Source: Armatimonadia bacterium
Lineage (GTDB): Bacteria; Armatimonadota; Zipacnadia; Zipacnadales; UBA11051
Assembly (NCBI GenBank): GCA_039683575.1
Contig: JBDKRC010000211.1
Span: 1 to 24,365 of the forward strand
Length of the DNA stretch: 24,365 nucleotides
Direction: 5' to 3'
Shown one piece after another: positions 364 through 21,744 of the stretch. The notes under the pieces were generated by a model, which was not told where the DNA came from, did no database searches, and worked only from the letters and a program-made list of their open reading frames with translations. Position 1 is the stretch's first letter, and every line of letters begins with the position of its first letter. Made by a program: the position numbers and the translations under genes.

Positions 364-969
364 CTAGTCAGTGAATACGTCCACGGGCCGCCCTGGGATG
401 GCTTTGGCGTGGCCGTCCACGAAGACGACGTTGGTGATACTCCACTTGGGCATGTTGTGCACTGCGCCGTAGCCCTGCTGCCAGAAGAACGCCCCGAAAA
501 CGTCGCTCCACATCCACAGTTCGGTTCTGGAGGAAAGCGTCAACTGGCGCGCGGGGTGGCGCGCAACGAAGGGACCGGTGTTGGAGTGGATGCCGAGCAT
601 GGACCAGTAGTAGTACCCGATGTTGCCGAGGTTGAAGTTGCTCTGCCCGGCGCGCAGGGTGGCATCGGCAGGAACGAGGCTCTCGATTGAGGGGCAGTAG
701 AATAGCTGCCAGTTCTTGACGTACGGCATCAGGCCCTGAGTTACATTGGGCATGCTGTTGCCCTGTGTAGCCGCAACGGGCAGCAGTTCGTCGTAGTCCT
801 GCCCGTAGGCCATGGTAGCCAGGGCGAGTTGTTTGAGGTTGCTCAGGCAGGAGGTCCGCCGCGCCTGCTCTCGCGCCTTGGCGAAGACGGGGAACAATAT
901 GGCGGCCAGAATCGCTATGATGGCAATTACGACAAGCAGCTCAATCAATGTGAAGCCCAGTCGCTTCAT
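364..969 (-). CDS. DUF1559 / prepilin-type N-terminal cleavage-methylation domain protein
   Basis: [47 protein letters not shown], then YGQDYDE and a C-terminal [17 protein letters not shown] lies upstream. Confidence 0.92.
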
Positions 970-2294: not shown

Positions 2295-2962
2295 TGAACA
2301 AGCTGCTGAAAGTGTGCGGTCTCAGCCGGATTGCCGACCTGCGCCACGCCCAGCGTTGTGGAGCCGATTTCGTGGGCCTCGTAGTCGAGGCGCCGGGCTC
2401 CCTGCGCGCGGTGACACTGGAGCAGGCTGAGAGGCTGGCGAAGCTAGCGCCGGGGCAGACTGTGGCGGTGGTGATGAGCGATGACCCGGAATTCTTGAGG
2501 CAGGTTGTCCGGAGACTGCGCCCGCGCGCCCTGCAACTCCACGTGCCGAAGGCCGCGGAGTTGGTTCGCGAGTTGAAGGCCCTGTGCCCGGTGTGGGTGG
2601 CGGTTGGCCTGCCGCCGAAAGGCATCGGTGCCAGCGATGAGGAGCAAGTCGCAGCCGAGATGCGCGCGGCTGCGGAGGCGGGGGCGGAGATGATTGTGCT
2701 GGATACCAGCGTGAAGGGTCAGACCGGGGGTACGGGGCAGACGTCTGACTGGGAACAAGCGGCGAGGCTCGTGGCTCTGTGTCCGATTCCGGTCTTGCTT
2801 GCGGGGGGAATCTGCCCCGAAAACGCCGCCAGGGCTCTGCTGGTCGTAAATCCTGTGGGACTTGACGCCAGCACGCGGCTGGAACGCTGTCCCCGCGAAA
2901 AGGACGCGGCGAAGGTGGAAGCCCTGGCCGCGTCGGTCAAAGACCGGACTGCCTCCCCATAG
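2294..2962 (+). CDS. trpF: Phosphoribosylanthranilate isomerase
   Basis: KVCGL (catalytic Cys), GADFVG, QLH, VLDT (catalytic Asp), GGTG, LLAGG, GLDAS. ATG 2294 overlaps the GT4 stop (TGATG); the ORF-track start 2285 is an alternative. Confidence 0.9.
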   Translation: MNKLLKVCGLSRIADLRHAQRCGADFVGLVVEAPGSLRAVTLEQAERLAKLAPGQTVAVVMSDDPEFLRQVVRRLRPRALQLHVPKAAELVRELKALCPVWVAVGLPPKGIGASDEEQVAAEMRAAAEAGAEMIVLDTSVKGQTGGTGQTSDWEQAARLVALCPIPVLLAGGICPENAARALLVVNPVGLDASTRLERCPREKDAAKVEALAASVKDRTASP

Positions 2963-3029
2963 CCCACACTCAAATCACCTCTGGCCACGCAGAGAACCCC
3001 CTGCGGACGATTCCGCGGTTGCGGAACGC

Positions 3030-3053
3030 ATCAAGATAAAGTAATATCTTCAT
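3030..3053. promoter_or_regulatory. AT-rich palindrome, candidate operator upstream of the barrel-KS-kinase operon
   Basis: ATcAAGATA-AAGTAA-TATCTTcAT; core arms AAGATA 3033-3038 and TATCTT 3045-3050. A second palindrome, TTCCGC-GGTT-GCGGAA, lies at 3011-3026. Confidence 0.35.
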
Positions 3054-3173
3054 CAGCTTCTACCATTGCGCCAGGGAGTGGTGTCTTTGTAGCAGCCTGG
3101 GGTAGGCCCTTCAGCCTGGCAGCATCATCGTACACATTACGTCGCAGCAACACTATGCTTGGAGGCCGAGCCC

Positions 3174-4208
3174 GTGACTCATCTACAGAGAGCCGCCGTA
3201 GTTGCACTCGTACTTGCCGCGCTTGCCGCAATCTCGCCATGTTTCGGCCAAGCCGAAATGTACGCCCTCTCGCATCCCTTTGCCCTCCCCACCGCTACGA
3301 CCACCCGCCTGTTTGGCATGGGCGGCTTCGTTACCTGTATTCCGGACCGAGGCTTTGCCAACCCTGCCTTCGCCGGCGCGCTGACTGACACTTCGGTCGT
3401 CGCCCGCCAGTCCCTCACCAGCTTCGAGAGCGGTCTGCGCTTCAAGGGCCAGCAGGCGTCCCTGGCCTTCCCGCTCAAGGACGACAAGCGCGGCATGCAG
3501 ATCGTTGGCTTCCGCCTTACGAGCCACCCCAGTTCCATCCCGATGCCGACACCCGTGCCGGCGGCCCTGGCGATATCCATGTCCGAGTATGAGTTGTCCC
3601 TCCACTACGGCCAGCGCGTCAGCCATGACCTGCTGCTCGGCGTGGGCGTGGCGCCGGTTTTCCACAATAGCTTCAACCTGTCCGTCGTGCCCAGCGGGCA
3701 TGAACTCGCTCAAATCACCTCCGAATCGGACAAAGGCATGCGTTTGGGCGCGGTCTACGAATGCAGTTCACGCGCGCGGCTGGGGTTTGTTTACGACCGC
3801 TATGATGAGGATGTAGTGGCCTCCGGGCATGCCATCGGCGGCGACGGGTTGCCCTTCTCCTTCACGTCCAAAGAGTTGGCCTTCGGGCTTTCCTATCAGC
3901 TCACGGATCAACTGCTGGGCGCCATCGAGTGGCAGCAGCTGTCCACCGAGCAGGATGCCAGCGATCTGGGCCCCGGAATGAAGTTCGGGGACGCCGGCTG
4001 GCGGATCGGCTTCGAGGGCGTTTCCGAGACCAAGTGGGCCTACCGCGTAGGCAGCAACGACGGGGCTATCTCCCTCGGCCTGGGGTATCTCGGCGACGAT
4101 GACTGGACCTTCAACTACGCCTTTATCCGTGACTGGAACAAGGACATTATCGGAGAGCTGATGGGGCCGTCTAACACCCACCAGTTCGAGCTGTCGTACA
4201 AGTGGTAG
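3174..4208 (+). CDS. Outer-membrane beta-barrel protein, PorV/PorQ/FadL-like
   Basis: Signal peptide (MTHLQRAAVVALVLAALAAISPCFG), hatch-like motif TRLFGMGG...FANPA, many amphipathic strands (ELAFGLSYQL, WAYRVG, WTFNYAF) and a C-terminal aromatic barrel signal THQFELSYKW. GTG 3174 has GGAGG at 3161-3165 (ORF-track start 3159). Confidence 0.7.
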   Translation: MTHLQRAAVVALVLAALAAISPCFGQAEMYALSHPFALPTATTTRLFGMGGFVTCIPDRGFANPAFAGALTDTSVVARQSLTSFESGLRFKGQQASLAFPLKDDKRGMQIVGFRLTSHPSSIPMPTPVPAALAISMSEYELSLHYGQRVSHDLLLGVGVAPVFHNSFNLSVVPSGHELAQITSESDKGMRLGAVYECSSRARLGFVYDRYDEDVVASGHAIGGDGLPFSFTSKELAFGLSYQLTDQLLGAIEWQQLSTEQDASDLGPGMKFGDAGWRIGFEGVSETKWAYRVGSNDGAISLGLGYLGDDDWTFNYAFIRDWNKDIIGELMGPSNTHQFELSYKW

Positions 4209-4250
4209 CCTAAGAGCCGGTCTACGCCGAACAGGGGGCCATCTTTGGTA

Positions 4251-5516
4251 ATGAAGCCTTCGTTGCTTAAGCCACACCAGCGCGTTGTAATCACCGGGCT
4301 GGGCGTTGTCGCGCCCAATGGCATCGGCCGCGATGCCTTCTGGGAGGCTCTCACGGAGGGTCGCTCAGGCATCGACTGGATCAAGGGCTTTGACACGTCT
4401 GACCTGTACTGCAAGATCGGCGGCGAGGTTCGCAACTTCGAGGCCAGCGACTACCGACCGGCCAAGAAGGCGTCGCGCAGCGGCCGCTTCTCCAATTTTG
4501 CCGTGGCCGCCGCCCAGCTTGCGGTGGCCGACGCCGATCTGGAGACCGCCGACGTTGATCCCTATATGATGGGCGCCGTCTTCGGCACCACGCTGGCGGG
4601 GCTTGGCAACATCGGCGATGACATCTACCAGCATCTCTACAAGCAAGGTATCCAGGGTCTTGATCCCCTGGCGCCGAGCGAAGTGTCGGCCCATGCCGCC
4701 ACGGCCAATGTCTTCATTGACCTGGGCATGAAGGGACCGAACACCACCTCCGGCCTCGGGTGCGTCTCGACGCTGGATGCCATGAACACTTCCATGGCGC
4801 TGCTGCAGGCGGGGCGCGCCAAGGTGATGATTGCCGGGGCCACCGAGGCCTGCCTGAGTAGCGTCGGGATGGGCGTATTGGCCGCACAGAAGGTCCTCAC
4901 CAAGCGCAATGATCCCCCGCAGGCAGCATGCCGGCCCTATGACAAGACGCGCGACGGCCTGATCCTGAGCGAGGGCAGCGCCGCGGTGGTGCTGGAGACC
5001 GCAGAACACGCCATGGACCGTGGCGCCCCCATATACGCTGAGGTATTAGGGTACGCCGCGACTACGGAGGCTCATCACCTGCTCCTGGCCAAGCCGGACG
5101 GCGAGGAGCTGGCGCAGGCCTTCCGCACGGCGTTACTGCAGGCGAAGATCTCCACGGATGAAATAGACTATATCTGCGCCCACGGCATCTCGAACAAGCA
5201 GTATGACGTGGCCGAGACCAACGCGGTCAAGCAGGTCATGGGGCCACGGGCTTACCATGTGCCAATGAGCTCGATCAAATCCATGACCGGGCAGCCCTTT
5301 GCCGCAGGTGGTGGTTGGCAGGTGGTCGCAGCCTGTATGACGATGCAAACCGGAATCATCGCCCCGACGATCAACTACAATGAGCCCGACCCGGAGTGCG
5401 ACCTGGATTACGTGCCTAACCAGGCGCGCCAGGCGCGTGTGGACACGGTCATGCTCAACTCGCACAGTGTTGGCGGGACTCACGCCTGTCTTCTGATTCG
5501 CAAGTTTGCGGCCTGA
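4251..5516 (+). CDS. Beta-ketoacyl-ACP synthase II (FabF-like) family protein with a divergent active site
   Basis: RVVITGLGVVAPNGIG, catalytic Cys in GPNTTSGLGC, RPYDKTRDG, EGSAAVVLE, YICAHG, SSIKSMTG, APTINY, DLDYVPN. The second His is replaced by Gln. Start ATG 4251 or TTG 4245. Confidence 0.9.
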   Translation: MKPSLLKPHQRVVITGLGVVAPNGIGRDAFWEALTEGRSGIDWIKGFDTSDLYCKIGGEVRNFEASDYRPAKKASRSGRFSNFAVAAAQLAVADADLETADVDPYMMGAVFGTTLAGLGNIGDDIYQHLYKQGIQGLDPLAPSEVSAHAATANVFIDLGMKGPNTTSGLGCVSTLDAMNTSMALLQAGRAKVMIAGATEACLSSVGMGVLAAQKVLTKRNDPPQAACRPYDKTRDGLILSEGSAAVVLETAEHAMDRGAPIYAEVLGYAATTEAHHLLLAKPDGEELAQAFRTALLQAKISTDEIDYICAHGISNKQYDVAETNAVKQVMGPRAYHVPMSSIKSMTGQPFAAGGGWQVVAACMTMQTGIIAPTINYNEPDPECDLDYVPNQARQARVDTVMLNSHSVGGTHACLLIRKFAA

Positions 5517-5579
5517 GCCGGGGGGCATTATCAGGTCTCTGTGCCGGACCCGCCATCCAGGCGGGGAGGGTCGCTCCCG

Positions 5580-8078
5580 ATGACGTTCAGATTGGACCAT
5601 GTCGTGCTGACTACCATCTCGCTGGCCAGTGTGATTCTCGGGATCGCGGTGTACAGCCGGGCACCAGACCGCGTGTGGAATCGGCTGTTTGCGGTCCAGG
5701 CGTTTGCCGTCAGCATCTGGGTCCTGCTCAACTACCTGCTACAGGCCGCCACCACCACTGAGGAGGCGGCGCTGTGGCTGCGGCTGACCCATCCCTCTGT
5801 GGCCCTCGTGATCTGCACCTGTGTGGATCTCTTCTGGGTCTTCCCGGAGCGCACCGAATTCGCTCCCTGGCCTCGCCGCCTCGCGCTGTATTTCCTGGGT
5901 TTTCTGTTCAGTCTCGTCGCTTTCATGCCCAACCTGTTCACCAGCCTCGAGCTCGCTCGCGGCACGGTGCTTGTGGAGTATGGCTGGCCTTTCCTGGCCT
6001 TCGGCGTATTCGCAATCGGCACACTGGGTTACGCTGACTACATACTCATCCGAAAGCGCCCGCGGCTGACCGGCCTGCAGCGCGCGCAGGTGAATTACGT
6101 TCTCACGGGCATGATCATCGGGCAGCTCCTGGCGCTGCTCACAATGGTCCTGCTGCCGCTTATCTGGCACAACACCTTCTATGCCCGGTGGGGTTCGGCC
6201 AGCTACATGCTGGTAATCGGTTTCATGGCCTACTCCGTGGCCAAGCATGGCATCATCCGGCCAGCAGTCGCCATCATCCGCGCCACAGCCTACCTCGTTA
6301 CCGCCAGCCTGATGCTGGTGGCGGTCATCGCGCTCGCTAGAGTGGGCAAGCCCCTGGTATACCATCTTCCCTCGGCCACGCTGTTTTACATGCTGGCTGG
6401 CGTTGTGTTGGGCTTTGGCGGTGCCTGGATACACCAGTGGATCAAGCGGCGTTTGGAGAACGAGCTTCCTGGCGCCCACCTTGCAGACGCTGCCCAGCGG
6501 GCTTCCGGGGACATACTCCGGACGCTGAATGCCGAGGAGTTGCCCGACTTCGTGTCGGACACCATAATCCAGATGCTGCGTGCGGCCCACGTCAGTTGCT
6601 ATACCCGTGATGCCTCGTCAGGCCATTTCCGCTTGCGGGCAAGCAAGGTGAACAGCCGCGGGGCGGGTGCAGGCCAACTGCCTGCCGAGATCGCCGACGA
6701 TTCGCTACTGGTGCAGATGGTGTCGCGCAGCCCGGACCTGCTGGACCGGTCGCAGATTCGCCGCTTCCACTCCTTTGAGGAGGCCCAGCGGATTGTCGAG
6801 GCCATGCGCCACTATGAGGCCGAGGTGGTCGCTCCAATCCTCTGGGAAGACCGGCTGATGGGCCTGGTGGTGGTCGGAGAGGCTCTTGCGGGAGACATGT
6901 ACGGCCCCGAGGAGATGCGCCTGCTGCAGAACATGCTGCCCCAGGTCTCCCTCGCCGTCCGCAACTCTGAACTCTTTGATGAAGTTGTTCGCATCATGGA
7001 GTACAATGAGAACATTCTGCGCCAGATGCAGAGCGGCGTCATCGCCGTCAACTCCGACCGCAGGATTGTGACCTTCAATCCCGCGGCTGAAGAGATTCTG
7101 GGGCTTAGCGCCGAGAGCGTCCTTGGCCGCACGCCCGATGTCTTGCCAACGCCAATCGCCGCCCGGCTGATTCAGGCGCTCTCGGGCATCCCGCTGCGTC
7201 CCGAGGACCGCATCGAGTTGCCGAACGCGCACGGCCAGCGCATTCCCGTCGCCTGTAGCACCTCCCGCTGGCGCGGCGCGGTGGGCTCACAAGATGGAGC
7301 CATCACCGTTATCAGCGATCTGACACTCGTGGAGGAGCTTGAGCAGGAACGCCGCGACGCCGAGCACCTTAACCTGATCCGGGTGCTCTCCGCGGGCATG
7401 GCGCACGAGATCCGCAACCCGCTGGTGGCGATCCGCACGTTTGCCGAACTGCTGCCCTCCCGCTGGGACGATGACGAATTTCGCGGCGACTTTCTTTCGA
7501 CGGCGCAGGAGGAAATCGAGCGCATCGACCGGCTGCTCACAGACCTGCTGATGCTATCGAAGCCCGCCGGGGCGGTTGTCGAGGCAATCGACGTCAATCG
7601 CGTGTGCGAGGGTGTCACACGTGCCATGTCGGCCAACGCCGAGGCCAAGCAGGTGAGCCTGGTTACCGACCTGCGCCTGGATTCCAGCCGTCCGTTCTTC
7701 GGAGACCGGGGCCGGCTGCATCAGGCACTTGTCAATCTTGTAAAGAATGCGCTAGAAGCGGAGCCTCCGGACGGCCTTGTGAAGGTAACGACTGAGGAGG
7801 CTCAGAATTACGATTCTGAATCCGTTGTGCTCGTCACTGTGCACAACGACAACAGCTACATCCCGGAGGGGCAACTGCAGGAGGTCTTCCGCCCCTTCTA
7901 TTCGCGGCGGCATGGTGGCACAGGCCTGGGTCTTTCGGTCTGCCAGACCATCATCGAGGAGCATCATGGCAGCATTCGTGCCGAGTCTTCCATGCAAGCC
8001 GGCACTGACTTCATCGTGGAGTTGCCGGTGAACTCCATTCCTGGGGAGAACTCGTATGGTCGTAACGCTGGCGACTGA
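5580..8078 (+). CDS. Membrane sensor histidine kinase (HisKA_7TM-like N-terminus, GAF, PAS, HisKA, HATPase)
   Basis: About 9 hydrophobic segments, GAF (APILWEDRLMGLVVVG), PAS (GVIAVNSDRRIVTFNPAAEEILG), H-box AHEIRNPL, N-box LVNLVKNA, F/G2 FRPFYSRRHGGTGLGL. ATG 5580 has SD GGAGG at 5565-5569 (ORF-track start 5541). Confidence 0.93.
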   Translation: MTFRLDHVVLTTISLASVILGIAVYSRAPDRVWNRLFAVQAFAVSIWVLLNYLLQAATTTEEAALWLRLTHPSVALVICTCVDLFWVFPERTEFAPWPRRLALYFLGFLFSLVAFMPNLFTSLELARGTVLVEYGWPFLAFGVFAIGTLGYADYILIRKRPRLTGLQRAQVNYVLTGMIIGQLLALLTMVLLPLIWHNTFYARWGSASYMLVIGFMAYSVAKHGIIRPAVAIIRATAYLVTASLMLVAVIALARVGKPLVYHLPSATLFYMLAGVVLGFGGAWIHQWIKRRLENELPGAHLADAAQRASGDILRTLNAEELPDFVSDTIIQMLRAAHVSCYTRDASSGHFRLRASKVNSRGAGAGQLPAEIADDSLLVQMVSRSPDLLDRSQIRRFHSFEEAQRIVEAMRHYEAEVVAPILWEDRLMGLVVVGEALAGDMYGPEEMRLLQNMLPQVSLAVRNSELFDEVVRIMEYNENILRQMQSGVIAVNSDRRIVTFNPAAEEILGLSAESVLGRTPDVLPTPIAARLIQALSGIPLRPEDRIELPNAHGQRIPVACSTSRWRGAVGSQDGAITVISDLTLVEELEQERRDAEHLNLIRVLSAGMAHEIRNPLVAIRTFAELLPSRWDDDEFRGDFLSTAQEEIERIDRLLTDLLMLSKPAGAVVEAIDVNRVCEGVTRAMSANAEAKQVSLVTDLRLDSSRPFFGDRGRLHQALVNLVKNALEAEPPDGLVKVTTEEAQNYDSESVVLVTVHNDNSYIPEGQLQEVFRPFYSRRHGGTGLGLSVCQTIIEEHHGSIRAESSMQAGTDFIVELPVNSIPGENSYGRNAGD

Positions 8079-10047
8079 TCTTAAGACGGACTGGCTCGGT
8101 AAAGTGACTGACCTTCTGTCCGGCGACACCATGGTTGTGCCTGTCGCCGGGGAAGCTGCCTTTGAGCTCGCGCAACGCCTGCCCGTCTCGATCATCGTTG
8201 CCGGCCTCGAGCCGCTCACCCATGAGAAGATGCTCGGCTACCTGCAGATGCGCAAGTGCTGCCCCGAGGCGGTGTTTGTCTGTCTCGCTCCGGCCGAAGT
8301 GCGTGGGCAGGTGCGGCACGAGGGTCTCTTCTCTCCCGACTTCTGGCTCGACCCGCAGGTGACACTCTCCGAGGCGCAGGAACTGCTGCAGCAGGCTGTC
8401 CAGAAGGCCCATCTACTCTTGGACGCGAGTGGGGTGCCTCCGACCCCTGAGCCACAGTGGCGCGAGGCAGCCGCCGAGCCTCTCGGACCCGAGCAGACGG
8501 TTCTGCACCAGCTTCTCGGGGCCATGGCCGGCAATGCCGACCCGGACCGGCTACTGGACGCCTACATAGACGCCGTGTCTCAACTCGTCCGTTGCGCCGG
8601 ACATTGTTTTCTGTGGAAGAGCGAAGACGGCGGTTGCCTGCGGGTGAAGCGCGCCCAGGGCCTACCCCCCGAACTCGCCACTCACGGACGCCTCAGCCCA
8701 ACGGATGCACTGCCGTCATGGTATCGGACAAACTCCCGGGCGCTGACGCGTCAGGAGCTTGCCCACTGGCCCGACGCCGCCCTCGCCGGGGCGCTCACCC
8801 GCGAACTGCAGGTCTTCCGGGGGCAGGTCGCCATACCGCTGCTTCTCAGCGGCCGCCTCGAAGGCTTGCTGATCCTGGCCGAAAAGGTGGTTGGCGAGCT
8901 TTACAGCAACACCGAGCTTGAGACACTCTTTGTGCTCACGAGCTACGTCTCGGTTCACCTTGAGAATCTGCGCCTGCAGGCCCAGGTGCGCGAGACGCAG
9001 GAGTACATGCAGCGTAGCCTAACTGCGATGCGCTGCGGCCTGATCACGCTCGGCTCCGACGGCTGTATCACGGTCTGCAACCCCTACGCCGCCCACGTGC
9101 TTGGGGTTCGGCCGCAGGAACTCGAAGGAGCAGACCTGCGGGCCCTGCCCTCTCCTCTGGGCGATTACCTGTATTCGGCCTTCAAGTCGCCGGAAGCTGT
9201 GGTTACTGCCGAGCGCCTGTCGCTGGCCGGCCTTGGCGTTCAGCTTCGGGTCACCACCTCACCACTTCTGGACGGCGCCGGCAAGGCCGTGGGCAGTGTG
9301 CTTTTGCTTGAGGATATCAGCAGCACGGTCGAGGAGGCCGCCGAGACGGCCCGTCAGGACACTATCAATGCCCTGACGCGCATTATCGGCCGTCTGGCGC
9401 ATGATGTTCGTACGCCACTGACAGCCATCAAGACCTATGCCCAGTTAATGGATCAGCCAGACGACTTCGAGGACCTCTCCCAGTTCTGGCATGACACTGT
9501 CAGCCCCCAACTGGAGCGCCTGGATCGCCTCATCAGCGAGCAGGTGAAGCTGATCGAGCCGCCGCCGCCCTCCTTCCAGCTTGTTGACGTCGAGCAGCTC
9601 GTGCAGGAGGTAGTGGCGAAGGCCTCCTCCGGCAATCCGGACAATGGCGATCCGCTCCTCAAGATCGTCGGACCACTGCCGCGCATCGTGGCCGACCCGG
9701 GTCCTGTTCGCGATGCGTTCGGTTACCTTTTGCGATATCTTGGCGATCACGGTGCTTCACCCGTGGGCGTGGTCCTGGACCAGCATCGCAAGGGCCCCAT
9801 CGCCAACGTCCGCATCAGGATGCGCTCGGCGGCCAATGGCAGCGTGCCGGACCCGCACACCATTCTGGATCCCGTCGCTGTACTACAGTCAGAAGAAGGG
9901 GATCTGGGGCCCGCCATCAGCCGGCAGCTCATTGCCCGGCAGGGCGGTCGTGTCGAGGCCGCGCACGGCGACGGTTTCTTTGAGTTCCGCATGTTATTCC
10001 CGATAAATGTGGTGGAGCCGGTGGATGCGCACGAATCAAACCGCTAG
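8056..10047 (+). CDS. Cytoplasmic GAF-PAS-HisKA protein with pseudo-receiver N-terminus and degenerate ATPase domain (pseudokinase or phosphotransferase)
   Basis: GAF (IPLLLSGRLEGLLILAEK), PAS (GLITLGSDGCITVCNPYAAHVLG), H-box AHDVRTPL. The N, G1 and G2 boxes are degenerate. Overlaps the upstream kinase by 23 bp. Confidence 0.85.
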   Translation: MVVTLATDLKTDWLGKVTDLLSGDTMVVPVAGEAAFELAQRLPVSIIVAGLEPLTHEKMLGYLQMRKCCPEAVFVCLAPAEVRGQVRHEGLFSPDFWLDPQVTLSEAQELLQQAVQKAHLLLDASGVPPTPEPQWREAAAEPLGPEQTVLHQLLGAMAGNADPDRLLDAYIDAVSQLVRCAGHCFLWKSEDGGCLRVKRAQGLPPELATHGRLSPTDALPSWYRTNSRALTRQELAHWPDAALAGALTRELQVFRGQVAIPLLLSGRLEGLLILAEKVVGELYSNTELETLFVLTSYVSVHLENLRLQAQVRETQEYMQRSLTAMRCGLITLGSDGCITVCNPYAAHVLGVRPQELEGADLRALPSPLGDYLYSAFKSPEAVVTAERLSLAGLGVQLRVTTSPLLDGAGKAVGSVLLLEDISSTVEEAAETARQDTINALTRIIGRLAHDVRTPLTAIKTYAQLMDQPDDFEDLSQFWHDTVSPQLERLDRLISEQVKLIEPPPPSFQLVDVEQLVQEVVAKASSGNPDNGDPLLKIVGPLPRIVADPGPVRDAFGYLLRYLGDHGASPVGVVLDQHRKGPIANVRIRMRSAANGSVPDPHTILDPVAVLQSEEGDLGPAISRQLIARQGGRVEAAHGDGFFEFRMLFPINVVEPVDAHESNR

Positions 10048-10112
10048 CAAACCGCCGCCGCGTTAGGCCGGGCCTTTGACCAGGCGGACGCGGGCGCACG
10101 TGAGGCAAGTAG

Positions 10113-11744
10113 ATGACCAAACCCCTGGTGCTTGTGATAGACGACGAAGTGGGGCCGCGCGAGTCCTTGAGGATGATCCTCAAGAACCGCTACGATGTGA
10201 TGCTCGCCGATGGCCCCGAACAGGGCCTCAAGATGGCGGCTGACGCCCGGCCCGATGTCGTCTTTTGCGACATCAAGATGCCTGAGATGGAAGGTCCTGA
10301 GGTGCTGCGCCGTCTCAAGGAGCTTGATTCCGAAGTCCAGGTCGCGCTCATCACTGCGTATGCCGCCGTGGACACCGCCCAGCAGGCGGTGCGTTACGGG
10401 GCCATCGACTACATAACCAAGCCTTTCTCGGTCCAGGACATCATGCTCGTGGCCGACCGCGCTGTTGAGAAGCGCCGCCAGTCCGAGCGTCAGCAGGCCC
10501 TGATTGACGAACTCCAGCCCACCGCGCGGGTGCTGTCCGGTCAGCTTTCCGCCATCACCAGCGGGAGCAGCGGTGATCAGACACAGATCTACCAGAACCT
10601 CACTCAGGCCCACAACTCCATTGAGTCCCAACTCAGCAAGATTGCCAAACTGAATGCTATCGGCGAAGTTGCCGCTGAGGTGGCACACGATGTCCGCAAC
10701 TTCCTGACCGCCATCCTCCTGCGCATTGAGATCCTGCTCATGGACCTCAAGGAGCCCTCGCAGGTCAACTCACAGGCGGTCAAGGAAGCCCTGCAGGACA
10801 TTCTGCAGGCGGCCAGCGACGGCGCGCAGGCCGTGCAACGGATCTCCTCGATCTCAAAGTCCGATCCCTACGAGCCCTTCACGCTCCTCAGCGTCAATGA
10901 GGTCGTGAACGATGTCGTTAGCATGTCCTTCGGCCAGTTCCAGACCAGCCAGGGCGTGAGCATTGAGGTCAAGACCACCGACGTTCCGGATATCTACGGC
11001 AGCCCGACGGCCCTGCGCACCGCAGTCATGAATATCGTCATTAACGCGCGGCAAGCCCTGCCCGACGACGGAGGCCATGTCACGATCAGCACTGCCGCTG
11101 AGGGTGAAGACGTGCTGATAATCGTGCAGGACACGGGACGGGGCATTGCCGACGATGTCATGCCCTATATCACGGAACCGTTCTTCACCACCAAGGGTGC
11201 GCACGGCTCGGGGCTCGGCCTCAGTGTCGCCCGCAAGGTCATCGGCAACCACGAGGGGCGCATCGAGTTCGACAGCGTCCCCGATCGCGGCACCACGGTC
11301 ACCATCAGGCTGCCGCTCAAGTCCTCACGCAGCCAGGAGAAGGAATCCACCGATACTCCAGAGCCCGGCGATCCTGTGCCCTCGGTGCTGGTGATCGAGG
11401 ACGACGTGGAGATGCTGACCAACATCAACACCGCGATCATCGGCGCGGGCCTGACCGCCGAGGGCGCTCGCGATGCCGGCGAGGCACTGCAGAAGCTCGA
11501 CGGGTACCTAACCGACTACGGGCATGCTCCAGCGACGGTCATCACCGACCTTCACATGCCGGGCCTCCTGGGCACGGAACTGGCTCGCCGCGTCAAGAAT
11601 CTCGCCCCCGACACGCGCGTGATACTCGTCAGCGGCTACATCACGGAAGAGGCCACACACATCTCCTCACCCCATGTGGACGCGATCATCAAGAAGCCCT
11701 TCCGCTTCCCCGACTTGCTCAGGCAGATCAGCCCACCAGTGTGA
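10113..11744 (+). CDS. Hybrid REC-histidine kinase-REC protein
   Basis: REC1 (VIDDE, VFCDIKMP, ITAY, TKPF), H-box AHDVRN, N-box NIVINARQA, G1 DTGRG, PFFTTK, G2 GSGLGL, REC2 (IEDD, ITDLHMPG, VSGY, KKPF). Confidence 0.93.
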   Translation: MTKPLVLVIDDEVGPRESLRMILKNRYDVMLADGPEQGLKMAADARPDVVFCDIKMPEMEGPEVLRRLKELDSEVQVALITAYAAVDTAQQAVRYGAIDYITKPFSVQDIMLVADRAVEKRRQSERQQALIDELQPTARVLSGQLSAITSGSSGDQTQIYQNLTQAHNSIESQLSKIAKLNAIGEVAAEVAHDVRNFLTAILLRIEILLMDLKEPSQVNSQAVKEALQDILQAASDGAQAVQRISSISKSDPYEPFTLLSVNEVVNDVVSMSFGQFQTSQGVSIEVKTTDVPDIYGSPTALRTAVMNIVINARQALPDDGGHVTISTAAEGEDVLIIVQDTGRGIADDVMPYITEPFFTTKGAHGSGLGLSVARKVIGNHEGRIEFDSVPDRGTTVTIRLPLKSSRSQEKESTDTPEPGDPVPSVLVIEDDVEMLTNINTAIIGAGLTAEGARDAGEALQKLDGYLTDYGHAPATVITDLHMPGLLGTELARRVKNLAPDTRVILVSGYITEEATHISSPHVDAIIKKPFRFPDLLRQISPPV

Positions 11745-11764
11745 TCCCCTCCACCACGCCGATA

Positions 11765-11788
11765 AGCAGGCGCTCTGCCTGCTCGTTT
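11765..11788 (+). terminator. Possible weak intrinsic terminator between convergent genes
   Basis: AGCAGGC-GCTCT-GCCTGCT hairpin followed only by CGTTT. A second hairpin, GCACTGGCA...TGCCGGTGC, lies at 11795-11820. Confidence 0.3.
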
Positions 11789-11858
11789 GAGGAGGCACTG
11801 GCAAGGCCGGCTGCCGGTGCGAGTGTCGGAGCGCAAGGGGTTGGGGGCCGGGTTGTAG

Positions 11859-12557
11859 TTAGAGCTCAACCAGTTCGGTAGCTGTCGGCGCCAGCATCGC
11901 CTTCTCAAGTTTCCTCCACCCCGCCCGAGGCAGGACCTCTTCGGCCCGGTCCACTATGGCATCGAGAACCTCCGCCGGTGCTACATGCTGCAAGCCGGCC
12001 AGAAAGAACAGCCGCTCGTGGGGGTTCATCGCCGGCAGCATCTCGTCCAGATACGCCAGCAACTGGCCGATGCTCATGCTCCCAATGATCGCCCCCAGAA
12101 CCCGCGCAAGTTCGTCCGGCTGCGCGACCTCCCAAAGGCTTAGCATGACCTGTGCCTCCTCCTGGTTGAGGTGAGGCAGGTACAGGCCGATGAAGCGGTT
12201 GAGGCCCCTGTAGAATTCGAGCCCAAGGGCCTGACGGAGGCCGGGATCCTCGACCTCGACCAAGCGCTCGAAATGAGCCTCGAGGTCGGCCAGCAGCGCT
12301 TCCTGAAGCTCGTGGTCGGCGCTGAGGGCGCGGGCAACACCGGGTAGCTTGAGGTCCAGGAGCGGGTGGACGATCTCCGTCTCATGCTCCAAGTGGCTAC
12401 GCAATAGCCCTGTCAGCCCCCTCCACGCCTCCTTGAGGTCATCCACCTCGTCCCCGTCGCCCCAGTCCACCTGGCCACTCAGGCGCGATAGCTCGAACAG
12501 AGCCGACCGCAGGCCCTTGTGTACCTCAGTATAGAGATCGAGCCGGGGAGCACTCAC
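11859..12557 (-). CDS. Hemerythrin (HHE cation-binding) domain protein
   Basis: Di-iron ligand pattern VHKGLR ... HLEHE ... DH ... HLNQEE in a helical protein. GTG start with SD GGAGG. Confidence 0.85.
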   Translation of the reverse strand: MSAPRLDLYTEVHKGLRSALFELSRLSGQVDWGDGDEVDDLKEAWRGLTGLLRSHLEHETEIVHPLLDLKLPGVARALSADHELQEALLADLEAHFERLVEVEDPGLRQALGLEFYRGLNRFIGLYLPHLNQEEAQVMLSLWEVAQPDELARVLGAIIGSMSIGQLLAYLDEMLPAMNPHERLFFLAGLQHVAPAEVLDAIVDRAEEVLPRAGWRKLEKAMLAPTATELVEL

Positions 12558-17137: not shown

Positions 17138-17782
17138 TTAGTCGCCGGCTGCGACGGTGTACATTCCAGGGCTGGAGGGCTTGAGCCATTTCACATGGCC
17201 GTCGGCAAAGAGGAAGTTATTGCCGTCGCTGTGGCAATCGGCGGTCGAATGGTACCCGTTGAGATCACCGGAGCCATAGTCAGCTTGCCAACCGCCGTTG
17301 AGCACGAAGTAGCACCGTGCGTCAGCAGCCCAGAGGGTGCCAGCGACGTCCTGGATCTGGGCGGCGGCGCGAGAGGAGCGCAGCTCCCCGGCGAGGGCGT
17401 ACCCTGACCACCACGACTTGGTGTTGCGCCCGGAGAAGCCCGGGTAGGTGATGGTAGAGGGCTGGCAGCCGCAGCCACGGAAGGCGCCGTTGCGCCACTT
17501 GTTGCTGGGACACACCTGGACTTGCCAGTTCTTCATGTATGGCTGGATGATGTCGGTCCACCAGTAGTCGCCGATCATCTCAGGAGGCGTCCATTCGTCA
17601 TAGTCCTGCTGGTAGGACAGCAGAGCGAGGCCGATCTGCTTGAGATTGCTCTGGCAGCTTGACTGCCTGGCTTTCTCGCGGGCCTTGGCAAAGACCGGAA
17701 ACAGAATGGCGGCGAGGATCGCGATAATGGCGATCACGACCAGTAGCTCGATAAGCGTGAACCCAGACAGACGTGTCTTCAT
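17138..17782 (-). CDS. DUF1559 / prepilin-type protein with H-X9-DG motif
   Basis: [20 protein letters not shown]..., [26 protein letters not shown] 17782 has SD GGGAGGT. Confidence 0.92.
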
Positions 17783-18021
17783 GAACGTGGACCTCCCTGG
17801 CATGCTTGCGACATTATTCGGCAATATGTTGCCAATACCTTCCCACTTGGGTAGAAATCGGGAAGGCGGGGGACTGCGGCTGCCGGGGGGACGAACGCCC
17901 AGAGCTGGGTAGTGGATCAGGCCGGCCGGATCGTGTTGCGGTGAACAGTTGGGCGGGAACAGAAGGAGGTTCTCGGGAGTCAGTCGAACATCCCGATATC
18001 CTATCCGACAGGGGTGTCACA

Positions 18022-18684
18022 ATGCGCAGAGGTTTCACGCTTATTGAGCTACTGGTCGTGATCGCGATTATTGCCATCCTGGCAGCCATTCTGTTTCCGG
18101 TCTTTGCCAAGGCCCGTGAAAAAGCCCGTCAAGCCTCGTGTCTGGCCAACGTCAAACAGCTATCACTGGGCATCATGTCGTACGCGCAGGACTATGACGA
18201 GAAGTTGCCGCCGCGGTACTACCGATACGACCCGTCGGTGGCGGGCGGGCCGAACTGGTGCGACCATCTGGTGCAGCCCTACATCAAGAACCTCCAGGTC
18301 ATCCAGTGCCCCAGCACACAGGCCAAGTCCTACGGCTACAACCAGAACTACCTAAACTGGGTGTCGATCGGCTCCATCGCGACGCCGGCTGAGACGGTGA
18401 TGCTGGCCGAGGTGAAGAAGACGTATAACGACGCGGGCGGCATCGGTTGGGACCTGAGCGTGTTTCCGCCGTCAACCTACGGCAGCCCGCCGGCAGTTCC
18501 TGCTACCGACGAGGACGATCAGCCAGCCGCGGGCGACGCCAGCTATATCTACAAACCGCGCGCTCGGGGCGTTCACAACGGGGGCTGCAACGTGGGGTTC
18601 TGCGATGGACATGCCAAGTGGATGAAGACGTCACAGTTCTACTACGGGCAGGTACCGACGGACGCCTGGTTCGACCTGCTTTAG
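18022..18684 (+). CDS. DUF1559 / prepilin-type protein with H-X9-DG motif
   Basis: [17 protein letters not shown]..., [26 protein letters not shown] 18022 is preceded by AGGGGTG. Confidence 0.92.
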
Positions 18685-18709: not shown

Positions 18710-21289
18710 TCAGCCCTCGGCCAGTTCGACGGGAGCCAGCAGCGTTGCCGTCGTGCCCTGGCCGGGGGCTGTCTCGGTCAGGAGCTGTCCCCCAAAGTAC
18801 CGCAGGCGTTCACGGATGCTGAGCATTCCCATCCGTCTGCGTTCCTCATCGGAGGCCGGCTTGAGAGGCGGCCGCGGCTCACCATTGTCTTTGACCACCA
18901 ACGCCACCTGATCCTCCCGCCTTGACAGACTTACCTGGGCCTCGGTGACGTTGTCACGATCGAGCACATTCACCAGCAGTTCGCGCAGCGACTGGAACAG
19001 CACGATCTGCAGGTCCATCCCCAGCGGCTTGGGCTGCCCGTCGTCATGGAACTCCACTGGCAGCGAGTACTGCTCCTGGTATTGATGCACGAGAGTCTTG
19101 ACGGCCTCTTCGAAGCCGATCTCATAGAGGGCCGAGGAGCTGAGCTCGTACATAACGGCGCGGCTGCGGCTCAAGGCTTCCTGCAACAGGTCCTCAACCT
19201 CGGCGAGGGTCTGCTCACTCCCCTTCCCGATTGCCTTCTGCTGCAGCAAGCCGAGTTTGAGCTTGGCAAACGCCAGGAACTGCACAACGGTGTCGTGGAG
19301 TTGCGTGGCGACCCGGCGTCGCTCACGTTCTTCGGCGAGCGAGATCTCGGTGGCGAGGGCGCGCAGTTCACCTTGCTGCACCAGCAGGCGCTGCTGGGCC
19401 TGCTCGCGCTCCTCGATCTCCCGCCGCAGGTCCTCCTCCATGGCAATACGGTCGCTGATATCGGTGTGGAAGCCCAGGGCAGCGGGACCGTCAGCGAGCG
19501 TGATCTTCGCGACGTTGAGTTGATGGGTGCGGACCTGGCCATCGCGGGTGACCACATTCACGTCATACCGGATGGGGGCGTCCTCACCCCTGTCACGGGC
19601 GAGAACATTGTCGCGAACGATGTGTCGTGTTTCGGGGGCGTAGAGCGAGAGCACGTTCTGGTCGGGGACTTCGTCCTGGCTGTCGTAGCCCAGGAGTTCC
19701 AGCAGCTTGGGGTTGACGTAGACCAGATCGAGGCCGCGTCTGATGACGATGCCCAGGGGCGCACTCTCGATCAACTGCCGGAAGGTCTCTTCACTGTGCT
19801 GCAGAGCCGCGAGGGCTTGCTGGCGCTGCTCTTCCTGCTCGACGACCTGCAGGGCATAGGAGAGGTCGGCTGCGAGGGTCACAAGCAGTGCGACGCGGCG
19901 CTGGTTGAAGAAGTGCGGGCGGTCGGAGTACAGCACTATGGCGCCGATGGCTCGTCCGCCAGCTTCGAGCGGAAATGACGCCGAGGAGCGGTAGCCGCGC
20001 TTTCGGGCTTCTGCCACCCAGGGCTGCATGCTGCCATCCTGCTCGATGTCGTCGCAGATCTGGTGACGATTCAGCCTGAGCGCGCGACCGGTAGGACCCC
20101 GGCCTTCGGGCACGTCGTCGGCTGAAATGCGGATAACAGTAAGATAGCCATCTTCCTGGCCCCAGAAGGCAACCGGCACGATCTGGAGCGTCTGCTCGTT
20201 CAAGAGACCGATCCAGGCCATGAGGAAGCCGCCCTCGTCCACGGCGATGCGACAGGTGTCCTGGAACAGGCGGTCGCGGTCGCGGACCCGAACGATCATC
20301 TCGTTGATCCGTGTCAAGACGGCCCAGATCCGGTTAAGCTCCCGAAGATCGTCCTCAGTCGCCAACCGCTGCGCCTCGACCTCCTGCGAGTGCAGGGCCA
20401 GGCTTATGTCAGCGGCGAGGTCGTGGAAAAGGCCCTGTTCCTCCTCAGCATGTAGCAGTTCATCAGGAACCGACACGAACAGCGCGCCGTAGACGGTGTC
20501 GGCGTAGCGCAGGCCGGTGCCCAGAATGCCGGTGTCGCCGTGTAGCATATGCATGGGGCAGGCGCCATGCCAGGCGTCAGAGGGCACGGCAGCGACCTGC
20601 TCCGGGTGCTCCAACACGCTCCTGAGACAGGGAGGGAAGTCCCGCTTTTGTAGCGCTTCGATCACCAACGAGAAGCTTTCGCCAAGCCCGCTCTCGTAGG
20701 CCTGGGTGAAGTTGCCGGCGCTATCAACCAAGACAATCCAGGCGGCGCCGTACCCCCTGGTGACAGTGAGCCTCTCGCAGATGCTCTGCAAGAGCCGGTC
20801 CCGGTCGCGCTCCTGGGCAATCAACTGGCCGACATTGCGGATGGCGAGCAGCACGGAGTTGAGGTGCGCAATTCGAGCCTGCGCTTCACGTGCCTCCCGG
20901 CGCAAGCGCTCTGCCTTGAGGGCGCTATCCAGAGCGATGAAGAGGCGCTGGACGAGATTCTTGCCCTTGACGACATAGTCGGCAGCACCGCTGCGGATGC
21001 TGGAGGCGGCAATCTCCTCGTCGCCGTGCGCGGTCATGACAATGAAGACGGTCTCAGGGGCGGCGGCCACGAGATCGGGCAGGGCCTCGATGGCAGTGCG
21101 ATCGGGAAGCATGTAGTCGAGTAACACGGCGTCGTACGCACCGGCGTTGAGCTCCGCCAGAGCTTCGCTGGCCAGTTCGGCCTCGGCTACCTGGATGTTC
21201 TCGTAGTGATGTACCAGCGCGTCTCGCACCACTTCACGATGATCGGGCTGATCATCCACCACTAGAACCCGTAGGGCTACTTCCTCCAC
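18710..21289 (-). CDS. REC-GAF-GAF-PAS-HisKA_3 hybrid histidine kinase with an atypical ATPase domain
   Basis: REC (VVDD, LLDYMLPD, MTAHG, YVVK), two GAF domains (GYGAAWI; GFLMAWIG...GYRSSASFPL), PAS (YVNPKLLELLGY), HisKA_3 H-box ERRRVATQLHD, and a CA domain ending APGQGT. Confidence 0.9.
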   Translation of the reverse strand: MEEVALRVLVVDDQPDHREVVRDALVHHYENIQVAEAELASEALAELNAGAYDAVLLDYMLPDRTAIEALPDLVAAAPETVFIVMTAHGDEEIAASSIRSGAADYVVKGKNLVQRLFIALDSALKAERLRREAREAQARIAHLNSVLLAIRNVGQLIAQERDRDRLLQSICERLTVTRGYGAAWIVLVDSAGNFTQAYESGLGESFSLVIEALQKRDFPPCLRSVLEHPEQVAAVPSDAWHGACPMHMLHGDTGILGTGLRYADTVYGALFVSVPDELLHAEEEQGLFHDLAADISLALHSQEVEAQRLATEDDLRELNRIWAVLTRINEMIVRVRDRDRLFQDTCRIAVDEGGFLMAWIGLLNEQTLQIVPVAFWGQEDGYLTVIRISADDVPEGRGPTGRALRLNRHQICDDIEQDGSMQPWVAEARKRGYRSSASFPLEAGGRAIGAIVLYSDRPHFFNQRRVALLVTLAADLSYALQVVEQEEQRQQALAALQHSEETFRQLIESAPLGIVIRRGLDLVYVNPKLLELLGYDSQDEVPDQNVLSLYAPETRHIVRDNVLARDRGEDAPIRYDVNVVTRDGQVRTHQLNVAKITLADGPAALGFHTDISDRIAMEEDLRREIEEREQAQQRLLVQQGELRALATEISLAEERERRRVATQLHDTVVQFLAFAKLKLGLLQQKAIGKGSEQTLAEVEDLLQEALSRSRAVMYELSSSALYEIGFEEAVKTLVHQYQEQYSLPVEFHDDGQPKPLGMDLQIVLFQSLRELLVNVLDRDNVTEAQVSLSRREDQVALVVKDNGEPRPPLKPASDEERRRMGMLSIRERLRYFGGQLLTETAPGQGTTATLLAPVELAEG

Positions 21290-21744
21290 TTATCGGCCAT
21301 CTCCGGGCACGTATTGGTGATGGTCCAGTAGATGTTGAGGTTCTGGACCTTCTCATAGAACTCTTTGAAGCTCATAGGTTTGACGACGTAGCTGTTCGCA
21401 TGGCTCATATATGCTTTGAGGATCTCGCCCTCCTGGGAGGAGGTTGTCAGCATAACTACCGGTAGACCGACAAACCTGTCATCTTCACGGATCTTCGCCA
21501 GCACCTCGAGGCCATCGATCCCGGGTAGCTTGATATCCAGCAAGACGAGTGCTGGATCGGGATCGGTCCGGTCTGCGTACTTGCCGCGCCGGTAGAGGTA
21601 ATCAAGCCCGGATTCGCCGTCTTCGACCCACGCGACCGGGTTGACGACGTTACTGTTCTTGATCGCGTCCATAGTGATCTCGGCGTGGTCTGGGTTATCC
21701 TCCACCAGCAGGATTGGCTTGACTGCTTCCGCCACCTGGTTCAC
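21277..21744 (-). CDS. Single-domain response regulator (Rcp1-like)
   Basis: LLVEDN, LLDIKLPGIDG, MLTTS, ANSYVVKP and the C-terminal YW typical of the Rcp1-type subfamily. Confidence 0.93.
   Translation of the reverse strand: MNQVAEAVKPILLVEDNPDHAEITMDAIKNSNVVNPVAWVEDGESGLDYLYRRGKYADRTDPDPALVLLDIKLPGIDGLEVLAKIREDDRFVGLPVVMLTTSSQEGEILKAYMSHANSYVVKPMSFKEFYEKVQNLNIYWTITNTCPEMADKWRK

Follow-up and report, generated by a model that had tools for sequence, protein, structure and literature searches.

A FabF-like ketosynthase with a Cys-His-Gln triad, encoded beside a seven-transmembrane sensor kinase in Armatimonadota and possibly serving lipid signalling

The window analysed here is a stretch of 24,365 nucleotides, positions 1 to 24,365 of the forward strand of contig JBDKRC010000211.1 (GenBank assembly GCA_039683575.1), from an Armatimonadia bacterium of the phylum Armatimonadota. 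It contains a gene for a FabF-like ketosynthase (KS) that lies within a block of genes on one strand, in the order c1, KS, HK1, HK2 and hybrid kinase, three of which encode kinases (Table 1). Here we report that this KS belongs to a family of sensor-kinase-linked FabF-like ketosynthases, defined in the present analysis and apparently undescribed so far, and we weigh what such an enzyme may make. The KS open reading frame (ORF) runs on the + strand from 4245 or 4251 to 5516 and encodes 423 or 421 amino acids. Its start is likely the ATG at 4251, because a 99% identical database protein, on record as 'beta-ketoacyl-ACP synthase family protein' (ACP, acyl carrier protein), has 421 amino acids; residue numbers are counted from the alternative TTG start at 4245.

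Table 1. Genes of the block and residues of interest in the KS, with positions in the window
Feature	Position	Strand	Basis or remark
c1, putative secreted outer-membrane beta-barrel, FadL/TodX-like by predicted fold	3159..4208	+	Directly upstream of KS
KS, FabF-like, sensor-kinase-linked family	4251..5516	+	PF00109 and PF02801; best PDB match 1e5m_A
Cys173 codon (FabF Cys163), acyl-accepting nucleophile	4761..4763	+	Invariant in clade; 120/120 wider members
HGISN: His313 (FabF His303) kept; Ile315/Asn317 replace Thr305/Thr307	5181..5195	+	
KSMTGQ: Lys345 (FabF Lys335) kept; Gln350 (CAG at 5292) replaces His340	5277..5294	+	
Gln359, replacing FabF Glu349	5319..5321	+	118/119 of clade, 120/120 of wider family
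NSHSVGGTH, residues 405-413: remodelled gate and malonyl-pocket loop	5457..5483	+	
HK1, HisKA_7TM-GAF-PAS-HisKA-HATPase sensor kinase	5541..8078 (alternative ATG 5580)	+	Pfam
HK2, soluble PAS-HisKA kinase-like protein	8056..10047	+	Pfam; 23-base overlap with end of HK1
Hybrid REC-HisKA-HATPase-REC kinase, last gene of conserved block	10113..11744	+	Pfam

Both ketoacyl-synthase domains are present in the KS (PF00109, E 4.1e-34; PF02801, E 3.3e-28). Its best match among solved structures is the beta-ketoacyl-ACP synthase II (KAS II) entry 1e5m_A (E 4.4e-95), in whose alignment Gln350 falls on the second catalytic His and NSHSVGGTH on NSFGFGGHN. Standard numbering was set by aligning the close homologues described below with Escherichia coli FabF, taken from the E. 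coli K-12 fab region (locus L221). By this alignment Cys173 (codon 4761, in GLGCVS), His313 (codon 5181, in HGISN) and Lys345 correspond to Cys163, His303 and Lys335, while Ile315 and Asn317 stand for Thr305 and Thr307, Gln350 for His340, Gln359 for Glu349 and Glu275 for Asp265. Likewise His407, Ser408, Val409 and His413 take the places of Phe398, Gly399, Phe400 and Asn404, NSHSVGGTH lying on NSFGFGGTN. The catalytic triad is Cys173-His313-Gln350 rather than the Cys-His-His of FabF. The motif readings of an original prediction, made from the letters of the window alone, agree exactly with the translation of 4245-5516 (GLGCVS, HGISN, KSMTGQ and NSHSVGGTH, with their positions).

Work on canonical enzymes indicates what these substitutions touch. 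In FabF, Thr305 and Thr307 contact phosphopantetheine (bioRxiv 10.64898/2026.05.19.726425, in excerpt), and the GFGG gate loop, flanked by Asn396 and Asn404, is defined with Asp265 in an excerpt of PMC7138838 that also gives Phe400 as the gating residue. The equivalents of His303 and Lys335 form part of the decarboxylation machinery, and Glu342 of FabB, the equivalent of FabF Glu349, is an acidic partner tuning the second His (PMC2649909, Table 2). In FabB, two pockets lined by Pro272/Phe390 and Phe229/Phe392 hold the malonyl mimic thiolactomycin, the carbonyl of which binds both His residues (PMC10054515, in excerpt).

When the KS is held against the known classes of condensing enzyme, it falls outside canonical FabF. 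With the TIGR03150 fabF equivalog model it scores 412.4-412.6 bits, under the cut-off of 493.75; with the subfamily model NF005589, 'beta-ketoacyl-ACP synthase II', it scores 394.9, over the cut-off of 387. The Cys-His-His triad, the threonines of HGTST and the GFGG loop with Asn404 and Asp265 that characterise FabF are not found in it. The active-site Cys173, present and invariant, also sets it apart from chain-length factors (CLF) and KSQ proteins, and a KS-CLF pair was rejected as an explanation, the Cys being kept and the window holding no partner gene. None of the KAS III or chalcone-synthase-type models matches the KS at E up to 0.001, the only matches being to KAS I/II-type and thiolase-type models.

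Contig C21 of the host genome (6.2 Mb, 96% complete) encodes a canonical FabF, which scores 535.9 bits, over the fabF cut-off, and lies in a fabD-fabG-acpP-fabF row. With a normal fab set there, the KS is therefore an extra paralogue. The window itself has no matches to E. coli FabH, FabD, FabG or AcpP (tblastn), and no scanned ORF in it carries an ACP domain. A third condensing-enzyme locus of the same genome lies on contig C250 at about 26945-29056 (loci L003-L006), where a 745-amino-acid frame with two KS-like halves, a fusion of KS-CLF type, stands beside a FabG homologue.

A word-indexed search returned 120 proteins at 50-99% identity to the KS, the sources of which, where named, are Armatimonadota. 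Counts for this clade refer to 119 sequences of at least 396 amino acids, the window protein included, two of the 121 having been dropped as shorter. Gln350 is found in all 119, far beyond chance; the earlier suggestion that the changes do not reflect decay is thus borne out, and the outcome feared for it, His in all close homologues, did not arise. Cys173, His313, Lys345 and the equivalent of FabF Asp311 are likewise present in 119/119, and the replacements are nearly as constant (Ile315 in 116, Asn317 in 108, His407 in 118, Ser408 in 108 and His413 in 118 of the 119). A sample of 25 sequences reaching 50% identity has 61 invariant columns.

Columns that distinguish the clade, being fixed in at least 90% of its members and fixed differently in at least 80% of 42 canonical sequences, number exactly ten: G109A, A162G, D265E, T305I, T307N, H340Q, E349Q, F398H, G399S and N404H. 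All ten are active-site, second-substrate, gate or phosphopantetheine positions. Further differences of the clade are F202L, F229L, L342F and P272A/S. Equivalents of FabF Asn396, Gly401 and Gly402 are retained, the gate loop reading SVGG in the window and SFGG in most of the clade; ACP-docking region 1 is mostly basic, and Lys128 of ACP region 2 is lost. What the original prediction had noticed in one protein, changes on the malonyl side with the acyl-accepting Cys intact, therefore holds for the clade, in which the equivalents of Cys163, His303 and Lys335 are kept, and the alignment indicates that the acyl-accepting half of the KS is preserved while its second-substrate half is rebuilt. It had also placed the loss of the gating Phe in NSHSVGGTH. 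The motif is indeed remodelled, yet the gating residue is Phe400 (Val409 here), which is still Phe in 81/119 clade members; the constant change in the gate motif is Phe398 to His407, together with Gly399 to Ser and Asn404 to His.

Beyond the Armatimonadota, a profile built from non-Armatimonadota members retrieved a set of 120 wider members, with named sources in Methylomirabilota or Rokubacteria. The catalytic Cys, His303, Gln at Glu349 and His at Phe398 are each present in 120/120, Lys335 in 119/120 and Glu at Asp265 in 118/120, while position 340 is divided between His (64) and Gln (56). Among the nearest 119 representatives at 50% identity that are shorter than 700 amino acids, 79 have a Cys-His-His, 13 a Cys-His-Gln, nine a Cys-His-Asn and three a Cys-His-Met triad; the names of the nearest Gln- or Asn-bearing representatives were uninformative. 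Trees of 87 rows (FastTree) and 43 rows (IQ-TREE) split the canonical ketosynthases, including E. coli FabF and the FabF of the host genome, from the family, which consists of two clades, a Gln/His clade that holds the Armatimonadota sequences and an Asn clade. In the IQ-TREE quick search (LG+G4), support is 99 for the canonical group (11 rows), 97 for the Gln/His clade (27 rows) and 94 for the Asn clade (five rows), and the state at position 340 switches at least five times, at least three of them inside the Gln/His clade.

The idea that Gln at position 340 defines a clade consequently stands for the Armatimonadota, with 119/119, and gives way in the wider family, where His, Gln or Asn may be found. 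From these alignments His to Gln at 340 is not the family hallmark; what is constant is E349Q, F398H, D265E and the loss of the two phosphopantetheine threonines. The window KS carries this signature (Gln359, His407 and Glu275, with Cys173, His313 and Lys345 kept), which holds over sequences down to about 40% identity. Databases (NCBI, JGI) name the family proteins beta-ketoacyl-ACP synthase (II), and a literature search, outside of which most subscription journals lay, found no paper on a Cys-His-Gln ketosynthase or on a KS linked to a HisKA_7TM kinase.

The main clue to the role of the KS is its gene context, above all the neighbouring 7TM (seven-transmembrane) sensor kinase, which the original prediction did not take into account. 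Within the same taxonomic order, 39 of 44 other genomes match a KS query at 49-80% identity. Of the 356 genomes sampled from the rest of the phylum, only 10 pass E 1e-100, and their identities, 40-44% throughout, are those of ordinary FabF. We compared 20 Armatimonadota orthologue loci, with about 8 kb on each side, with the window, and the five-gene order of the window is a conserved block on one strand. The c1 gene lies upstream of the KS on the same strand in 19/20, and an HK1-like gene lies directly downstream in 19/20, the 20th locus being cut by a contig end; HK2 is in place in 19/20 and the hybrid kinase in 17/20. A gene for a B12-binding radical S-adenosylmethionine enzyme (rSAM) is adjacent in 15/20; in 13 of these it follows the hybrid kinase in convergent orientation, and in two it lies upstream and points away. 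Its NCBIfam matches, to HpnJ, HpnR and rSAM_ladder_B12, are weak and all far below the cut-offs.

Similar arrangements are found in other phyla. In Planctomycetota, 13 of 401 sampled genomes give family-profile scores of 568 bits or more, and the best match after them, a non-member, reaches 519 bits; the order rSAM, KS, HK1-like kinase holds in 11/11 loci, with Gln at position 340 in nine and His in two. In Methylomirabilota, 61 of 251 sampled genomes reach at least 551 bits, versus about 500 for their FabF, and an HK1-like gene lies directly downstream in 27/30 loci, two of the other three having less than 900 bases of flank. A profile scan of metagenomes returned mostly generic FabF, with four contigs of family members among the matches (L140, L141, L142 and L158), and a scan of genome contigs with alignment patterns common to FabF returned generic FabF loci alone, at 36-49% identity. 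On L140, L141 and L142, where the KS is 43-44% identical to that of the window, the KS is followed directly by a HisKA_7TM-GAF-PAS kinase and a second such kinase, the stop and start codons of KS and kinase overlapping or abutting on L141 and L142. Contig L158, of the Asn clade, carries, in this order, genes for a FadL/TodX protein (PF03349, E 1.7e-33) beside the module, a B12-binding rSAM, the KS, a 7TM kinase, a REC-PAS kinase, a sigma-54 activator and a REC-GAF-HD protein; rpoN also lies close by. The KS-kinase linkage spans at least three phyla, and the invariant core of the module is the KS with its 7TM kinase, the FadL-like channel and the rSAM being frequent accessories.

These data bear directly on one rival explanation, that the KS is an ordinary or decaying spare FabF lying beside kinases by coincidence. 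Although it passes NF005589 and database names call such proteins 3-oxoacyl-ACP synthase II, its score below the fabF equivalog cut-off, a signature conserved to about 40% identity, a kinase linkage that recurs in four lineages though the flanking genes differ, and the canonical fabF elsewhere in the genome make this explanation hardly credible.

Several features of the related loci deserve mention in their own right. In three of the 11 Planctomycetota loci (L249, L250 and L251), an extra CLF-like protein, without Cys or His, and a canonical Cys-His-His KS are encoded upstream of the rSAM. Loci of Methylomirabilota type have a protein of about 265-275 amino acids, without a family match, encoded divergently upstream of the KS (L288:6084-6887 -, L286:8336-9163 +, L140:1494-2288 -), and beyond it a PfkB kinase, joined in L288 by a YegS-type lipid kinase. 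In L286-L293 (Methylomirabilota), the KS and the following kinase genes have a G+C content at third codon positions (GC3) of 0.56-0.76, versus about 0.85-0.97 in most flanking genes, a possible sign of horizontal acquisition or of a difference in expression. The window lacks this contrast: its GC3 is uniform at 0.74-0.85, and a horizontal island was rejected for it.

In the window, the KS stops at 5516, and HK1 begins downstream of it at 5541 or 5580. No other HisKA_7TM match occurs in the 6.2 Mb genome, and HK1 has about 8-9 hydrophobic segments. A model of its N-terminal domain (5541-6455), with a predicted local distance difference test score (pLDDT) of 89.5, has nine helices and a beta-hairpin in the loop at residues 133-147; compared with solved structures, this fold matches generic seven-helix bundles of G-protein-coupled receptors (GPCRs), weakly (E 5e-4 and worse, TM 0.34-0.49), and the comparison gave no specific ligand lead. 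HK2 has no hydrophobic segments. The c1 protein has no Pfam or NCBIfam match and carries an N-terminal hydrophobic segment at residues 6-33; the best Foldseek matches of its AlphaFold model (pLDDT 84.1, predicted TM-score 0.80) in the PDB are TodX, TbuX, CymD and FadL (E 4e-12 to 1e-10, TMq 0.49-0.59).

A scan of 2800-12100 for promoters and terminators gave counts no different from those of shuffled sequence. Contigs of two RNA runs, X4 and X6 (one sample of one study), occupy 16 and 19 of 30 bins and cover each of the five genes in part; they are not counted as evidence of expression, because DNA carry-over is uncontrolled and a single transcript is not demonstrable from contigs. The stretches left bare carry no meaning either. 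A contig of DNA run X1 has one extra A after 4211, between c1 and the KS, which is probably strain variation.

The closeness of KS and HK1 would also suit a co-sensor, in which the KS, bound to the kinase, signals the state of the acyl-ACP or acyl-CoA pool by means of its own acylation, with no product released. The strict one-to-one adjacency, the overlapping or abutting codons in L141 and L142, and the presence in the genome of one HisKA_7TM kinase and a single KS of the module (the canonical FabF on C21 apart) agree with such a role. A conserved complete catalytic core with a remodelled second-substrate pocket argues instead for turnover chemistry, and these data hold no sign of contact between KS and HK1. 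A predicted complex of the KS with HK1 residues 300-845 scored 0.00 in a run without controls, which speaks neither for nor against contact. We consider the co-sensor decidedly improbable.

We tentatively favour a reading in which the KS is a specialised condensing enzyme, one that probably still decarboxylates, and the 7TM kinase next to it senses its hydrophobic product; we rate the chances of this reading as somewhat short of even. That the product is hydrophobic and sensed is suggested by the genes linked to the KS, which encode a membrane sensor, a member of a channel family that passes hydrophobic molecules, and a tailoring rSAM. Cys173 would accept an acyl chain, the likely source being acyl-ACP made by the housekeeping fatty acid synthase, and the chain would be condensed, probably with decarboxylation, with an extender in the more polar, rebuilt pocket, the extender or its carrier perhaps being unusual; Gln350 would supply the hydrogen bond given by His340 in FabF and by Asn in KAS III. 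The product, tailored in many lineages by the rSAM, would partition into the membrane and act as ligand of the co-encoded 7TM kinase, which would in turn feed a multi-kinase relay, and in the window organism the FadL-like channel would pass it across the outer membrane.

The part proposed for Gln350 leans on an analogy. The Nε2 of Gln can replace the Nε2 of His as a donor. Since position 340 can be His, Gln or Asn while the gene context stays the same, the residue would act as a hydrogen-bond donor, and most likely Gln350 acts only in this way, towards the thioester or enolate oxygen. With a donor-only role, H340Q is no evidence for loss of decarboxylative condensation, which is more likely retained than lost because the equivalents of His303 and Lys335 are also kept. 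Enzymes of Cys-His-Asn type (KAS III/FabH and the chalcone-synthase type) provide a functional parallel for Gln350 and for the Asn clade, an amide standing at the place of the second His, although they belong to another branch of the thiolase superfamily, whereas the KS matches KAS I/II-type domains. Cys-His-Asn enzymes still decarboxylate malonyl units; the FabH triad is Cys112-His244-Asn274 (PMC10054515, in excerpt).

This bears on the chemistry that the original prediction had put forward, in which the acyl-Cys would be resolved without decarboxylation, through an amine or alcohol acceptor or by head-to-head Claisen condensation, and which could still serve signalling. The loss of phosphopantetheine-binding Thr305 and Thr307, a second-substrate pocket made polar by the new His407, His413, Asn317 and Gln359, and the loss of Gly399, the pivot of the gate loop (gate roles in PMC7138838, in excerpt), are all in favour of such chemistry. 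On the other side stand the invariant equivalents of His303 and Lys335 of the decarboxylation machinery (PMC2649909, Table 2) and the toggling of position 340 among His, Gln and Asn in orthologues of the same context, as expected of a mere hydrogen-bond donor like that of the decarboxylating Cys-His-Asn enzymes (FabH triad in PMC10054515, in excerpt); moreover, no candidate gene that would supply an acceptor is conserved nearby. No result points specifically to either of these routes, and we regard such chemistry as improbable.

How far the proposed synthase and sensor resemble known systems depends on which part is compared. Measured against KAS II/FabF, the KS shares the two-domain thiolase fold, 35% identity to E. 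coli FabF and the equivalents of Cys163, His303, Lys335 and Asp311, but it sits in a sensor-kinase operon, not a fab operon, and His340, Glu349, Thr305/307, Phe398, Gly399, Asn404 and Asp265 are changed. CqsA/CqsS and LuxM/LuxN are gene pairs of a signal synthase and a membrane receptor-kinase, and the likeness lies in a synthase gene for an enzyme using acyl chains beside a polytopic membrane sensor kinase, with a hydrophobic product expected. Ketosynthase-type signal synthases are also on record, PpyS for photopyrones and DarB for dialkylresorcinols (PMC7154725, in excerpt). However, the synthases CqsA, LuxM, PpyS and DarB are not known to be FabF-type, the receptors are not known to have HisKA_7TM, and the signals of PpyS and DarB are read by LuxR-type regulators.

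A different precedent comes from Bacillus subtilis, where the desaturase Des is controlled by DesKR through a DNA-binding regulator. By likeness to des-desK-desR, where a gene for a lipid-modifying enzyme stands beside one for a membrane-embedded kinase, the module could serve membrane-lipid adaptation, with the 7TM kinase sensing a property of the membrane and the KS (with the rSAM, where present) remodelling the acyl chains of bulk lipids. A membrane-embedded sensor, with its about 8-9 hydrophobic segments, adjoining lipid-type enzymes is what one would expect of such a module, as are the FabF derivation of the KS, an ACP-docking region 1 that is largely kept, and the lipid-pathway B12 rSAM families among the weak, sub-cut-off NCBIfam matches. 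Unlike the des system, however, the condensing enzyme here is apparently co-transcribed with three kinases rather than being a separately regulated target, and the window holds no DNA-binding regulator. The rebuilt malonyl and phosphopantetheine side would be unneeded in a simple elongase, in two lineages the module is linked to a FadL-type channel, a type that passes small hydrophobic molecules, and the patchy occurrence of the module (13/401 Planctomycetota, 61/251 Methylomirabilota) is more in keeping with an accessory system than with core homeostasis of the membrane. We therefore judge lipid adaptation rather unlikely.

Another comparison is with the anammox 'Cluster I' amxFabF2/amxFabFmut heterodimer, whose FabF paralogues lie in clusters with radical SAM enzymes (bioRxiv 10.64898/2026.05.19.726425, in excerpt) and whose structure, PDB 9s5h, is among the structure matches to the KS. 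The Planctomycetota members of the KS family likewise adjoin a B12-binding rSAM gene. In the same excerpt, amxFabF2 has a normal Cys-His-His triad and the phosphopantetheine threonines, and amxFabFmut is without the Cys; the KS family, by contrast, keeps the Cys and is tied to kinases, and in the window it has no CLF-like partner. A ladderane cluster was rejected as an identity for the module, the family being present in three non-anammox lineages.

Several points weigh against a lipid-signal synthase. In the genus of the window organism the rSAM gene does not adjoin the module, its 50% identical orthologue lying here on contig C159 in an unrelated context, and no radical SAM gene was found within about 7 kb on each side in 8/8 Methylomirabilota loci examined. 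Next to the module, no FadL-like gene was found in loci of Methylomirabilota or Planctomycetota, and the FadL match of c1 itself is moderate (TM 0.5-0.6, root-mean-square deviation 8-9 Å). Neither an ACP nor a thioesterase or other release enzyme is encoded in the operon, and the window lacks a DNA-binding response regulator. With Thr305, Thr307 and Lys128 of ACP region 2 lost, ACP thioesters may not be substrates at all. Gene adjacency suits a regulated lipid-modifying enzyme as well as a signal synthase, and every chemical step of the mechanism is inferred.

Should a signal synthase nevertheless be the right description, many genes called '3-oxoacyl-ACP synthase II', in poorly studied phyla of wastewater, sediment and soil that include anammox-type and NC10-type bacteria, would encode the synthase half of a system that makes and senses a lipid, not a fatty-acid synthase. 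The HisKA_7TM sensor domain, for which our literature search found no published ligand, would gain a candidate ligand source. The family would also offer a natural experiment on the KAS I/II active site, with His, Gln or Asn at the second triad position and a relocated His at Phe398, and a simple rule for annotation that tells the family from true FabF by Gln at Glu349, His at Phe398 and an adjoining 7TM kinase. A still broader proposal, which we hold to be doubtful, is that the KS and 7TM kinase represent a new and widespread bacterial class of lipid signalling, with a FabF-derived messenger synthase, rSAM tailoring in many lineages, a weakly GPCR-like seven-helix kinase as reader and FadL-type passage through the outer membrane. 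Under that proposal, the class would serve communication from cell to cell or from envelope to cytoplasm in Armatimonadota, anammox-type Planctomycetota, Methylomirabilota and others.

DNA near-identical to 2900-8100 of the window occurs in public metagenome runs from wastewater, sludge and anaerobic digesters, one run alone holding more than half of the sampled words. Elsewhere in the window, 364-969 (-) and 17806-18684 (+) encode prepilin-type N-methylation proteins with DUF1559, one of them also with an H-X9-DG C-terminal domain, and 17138-17824 (-) groups with these two by BLAST alone; DUF1559 prepilin-type families are typical of Planctomycetota-like and Armatimonadota genomes. A second, unrelated signalling cluster consists of a REC-GAF-PAS-HisKA_3 kinase, a stand-alone receiver and a HAMP kinase (18710-21289, 21277-21744 and 21695-23713, all on the - strand).

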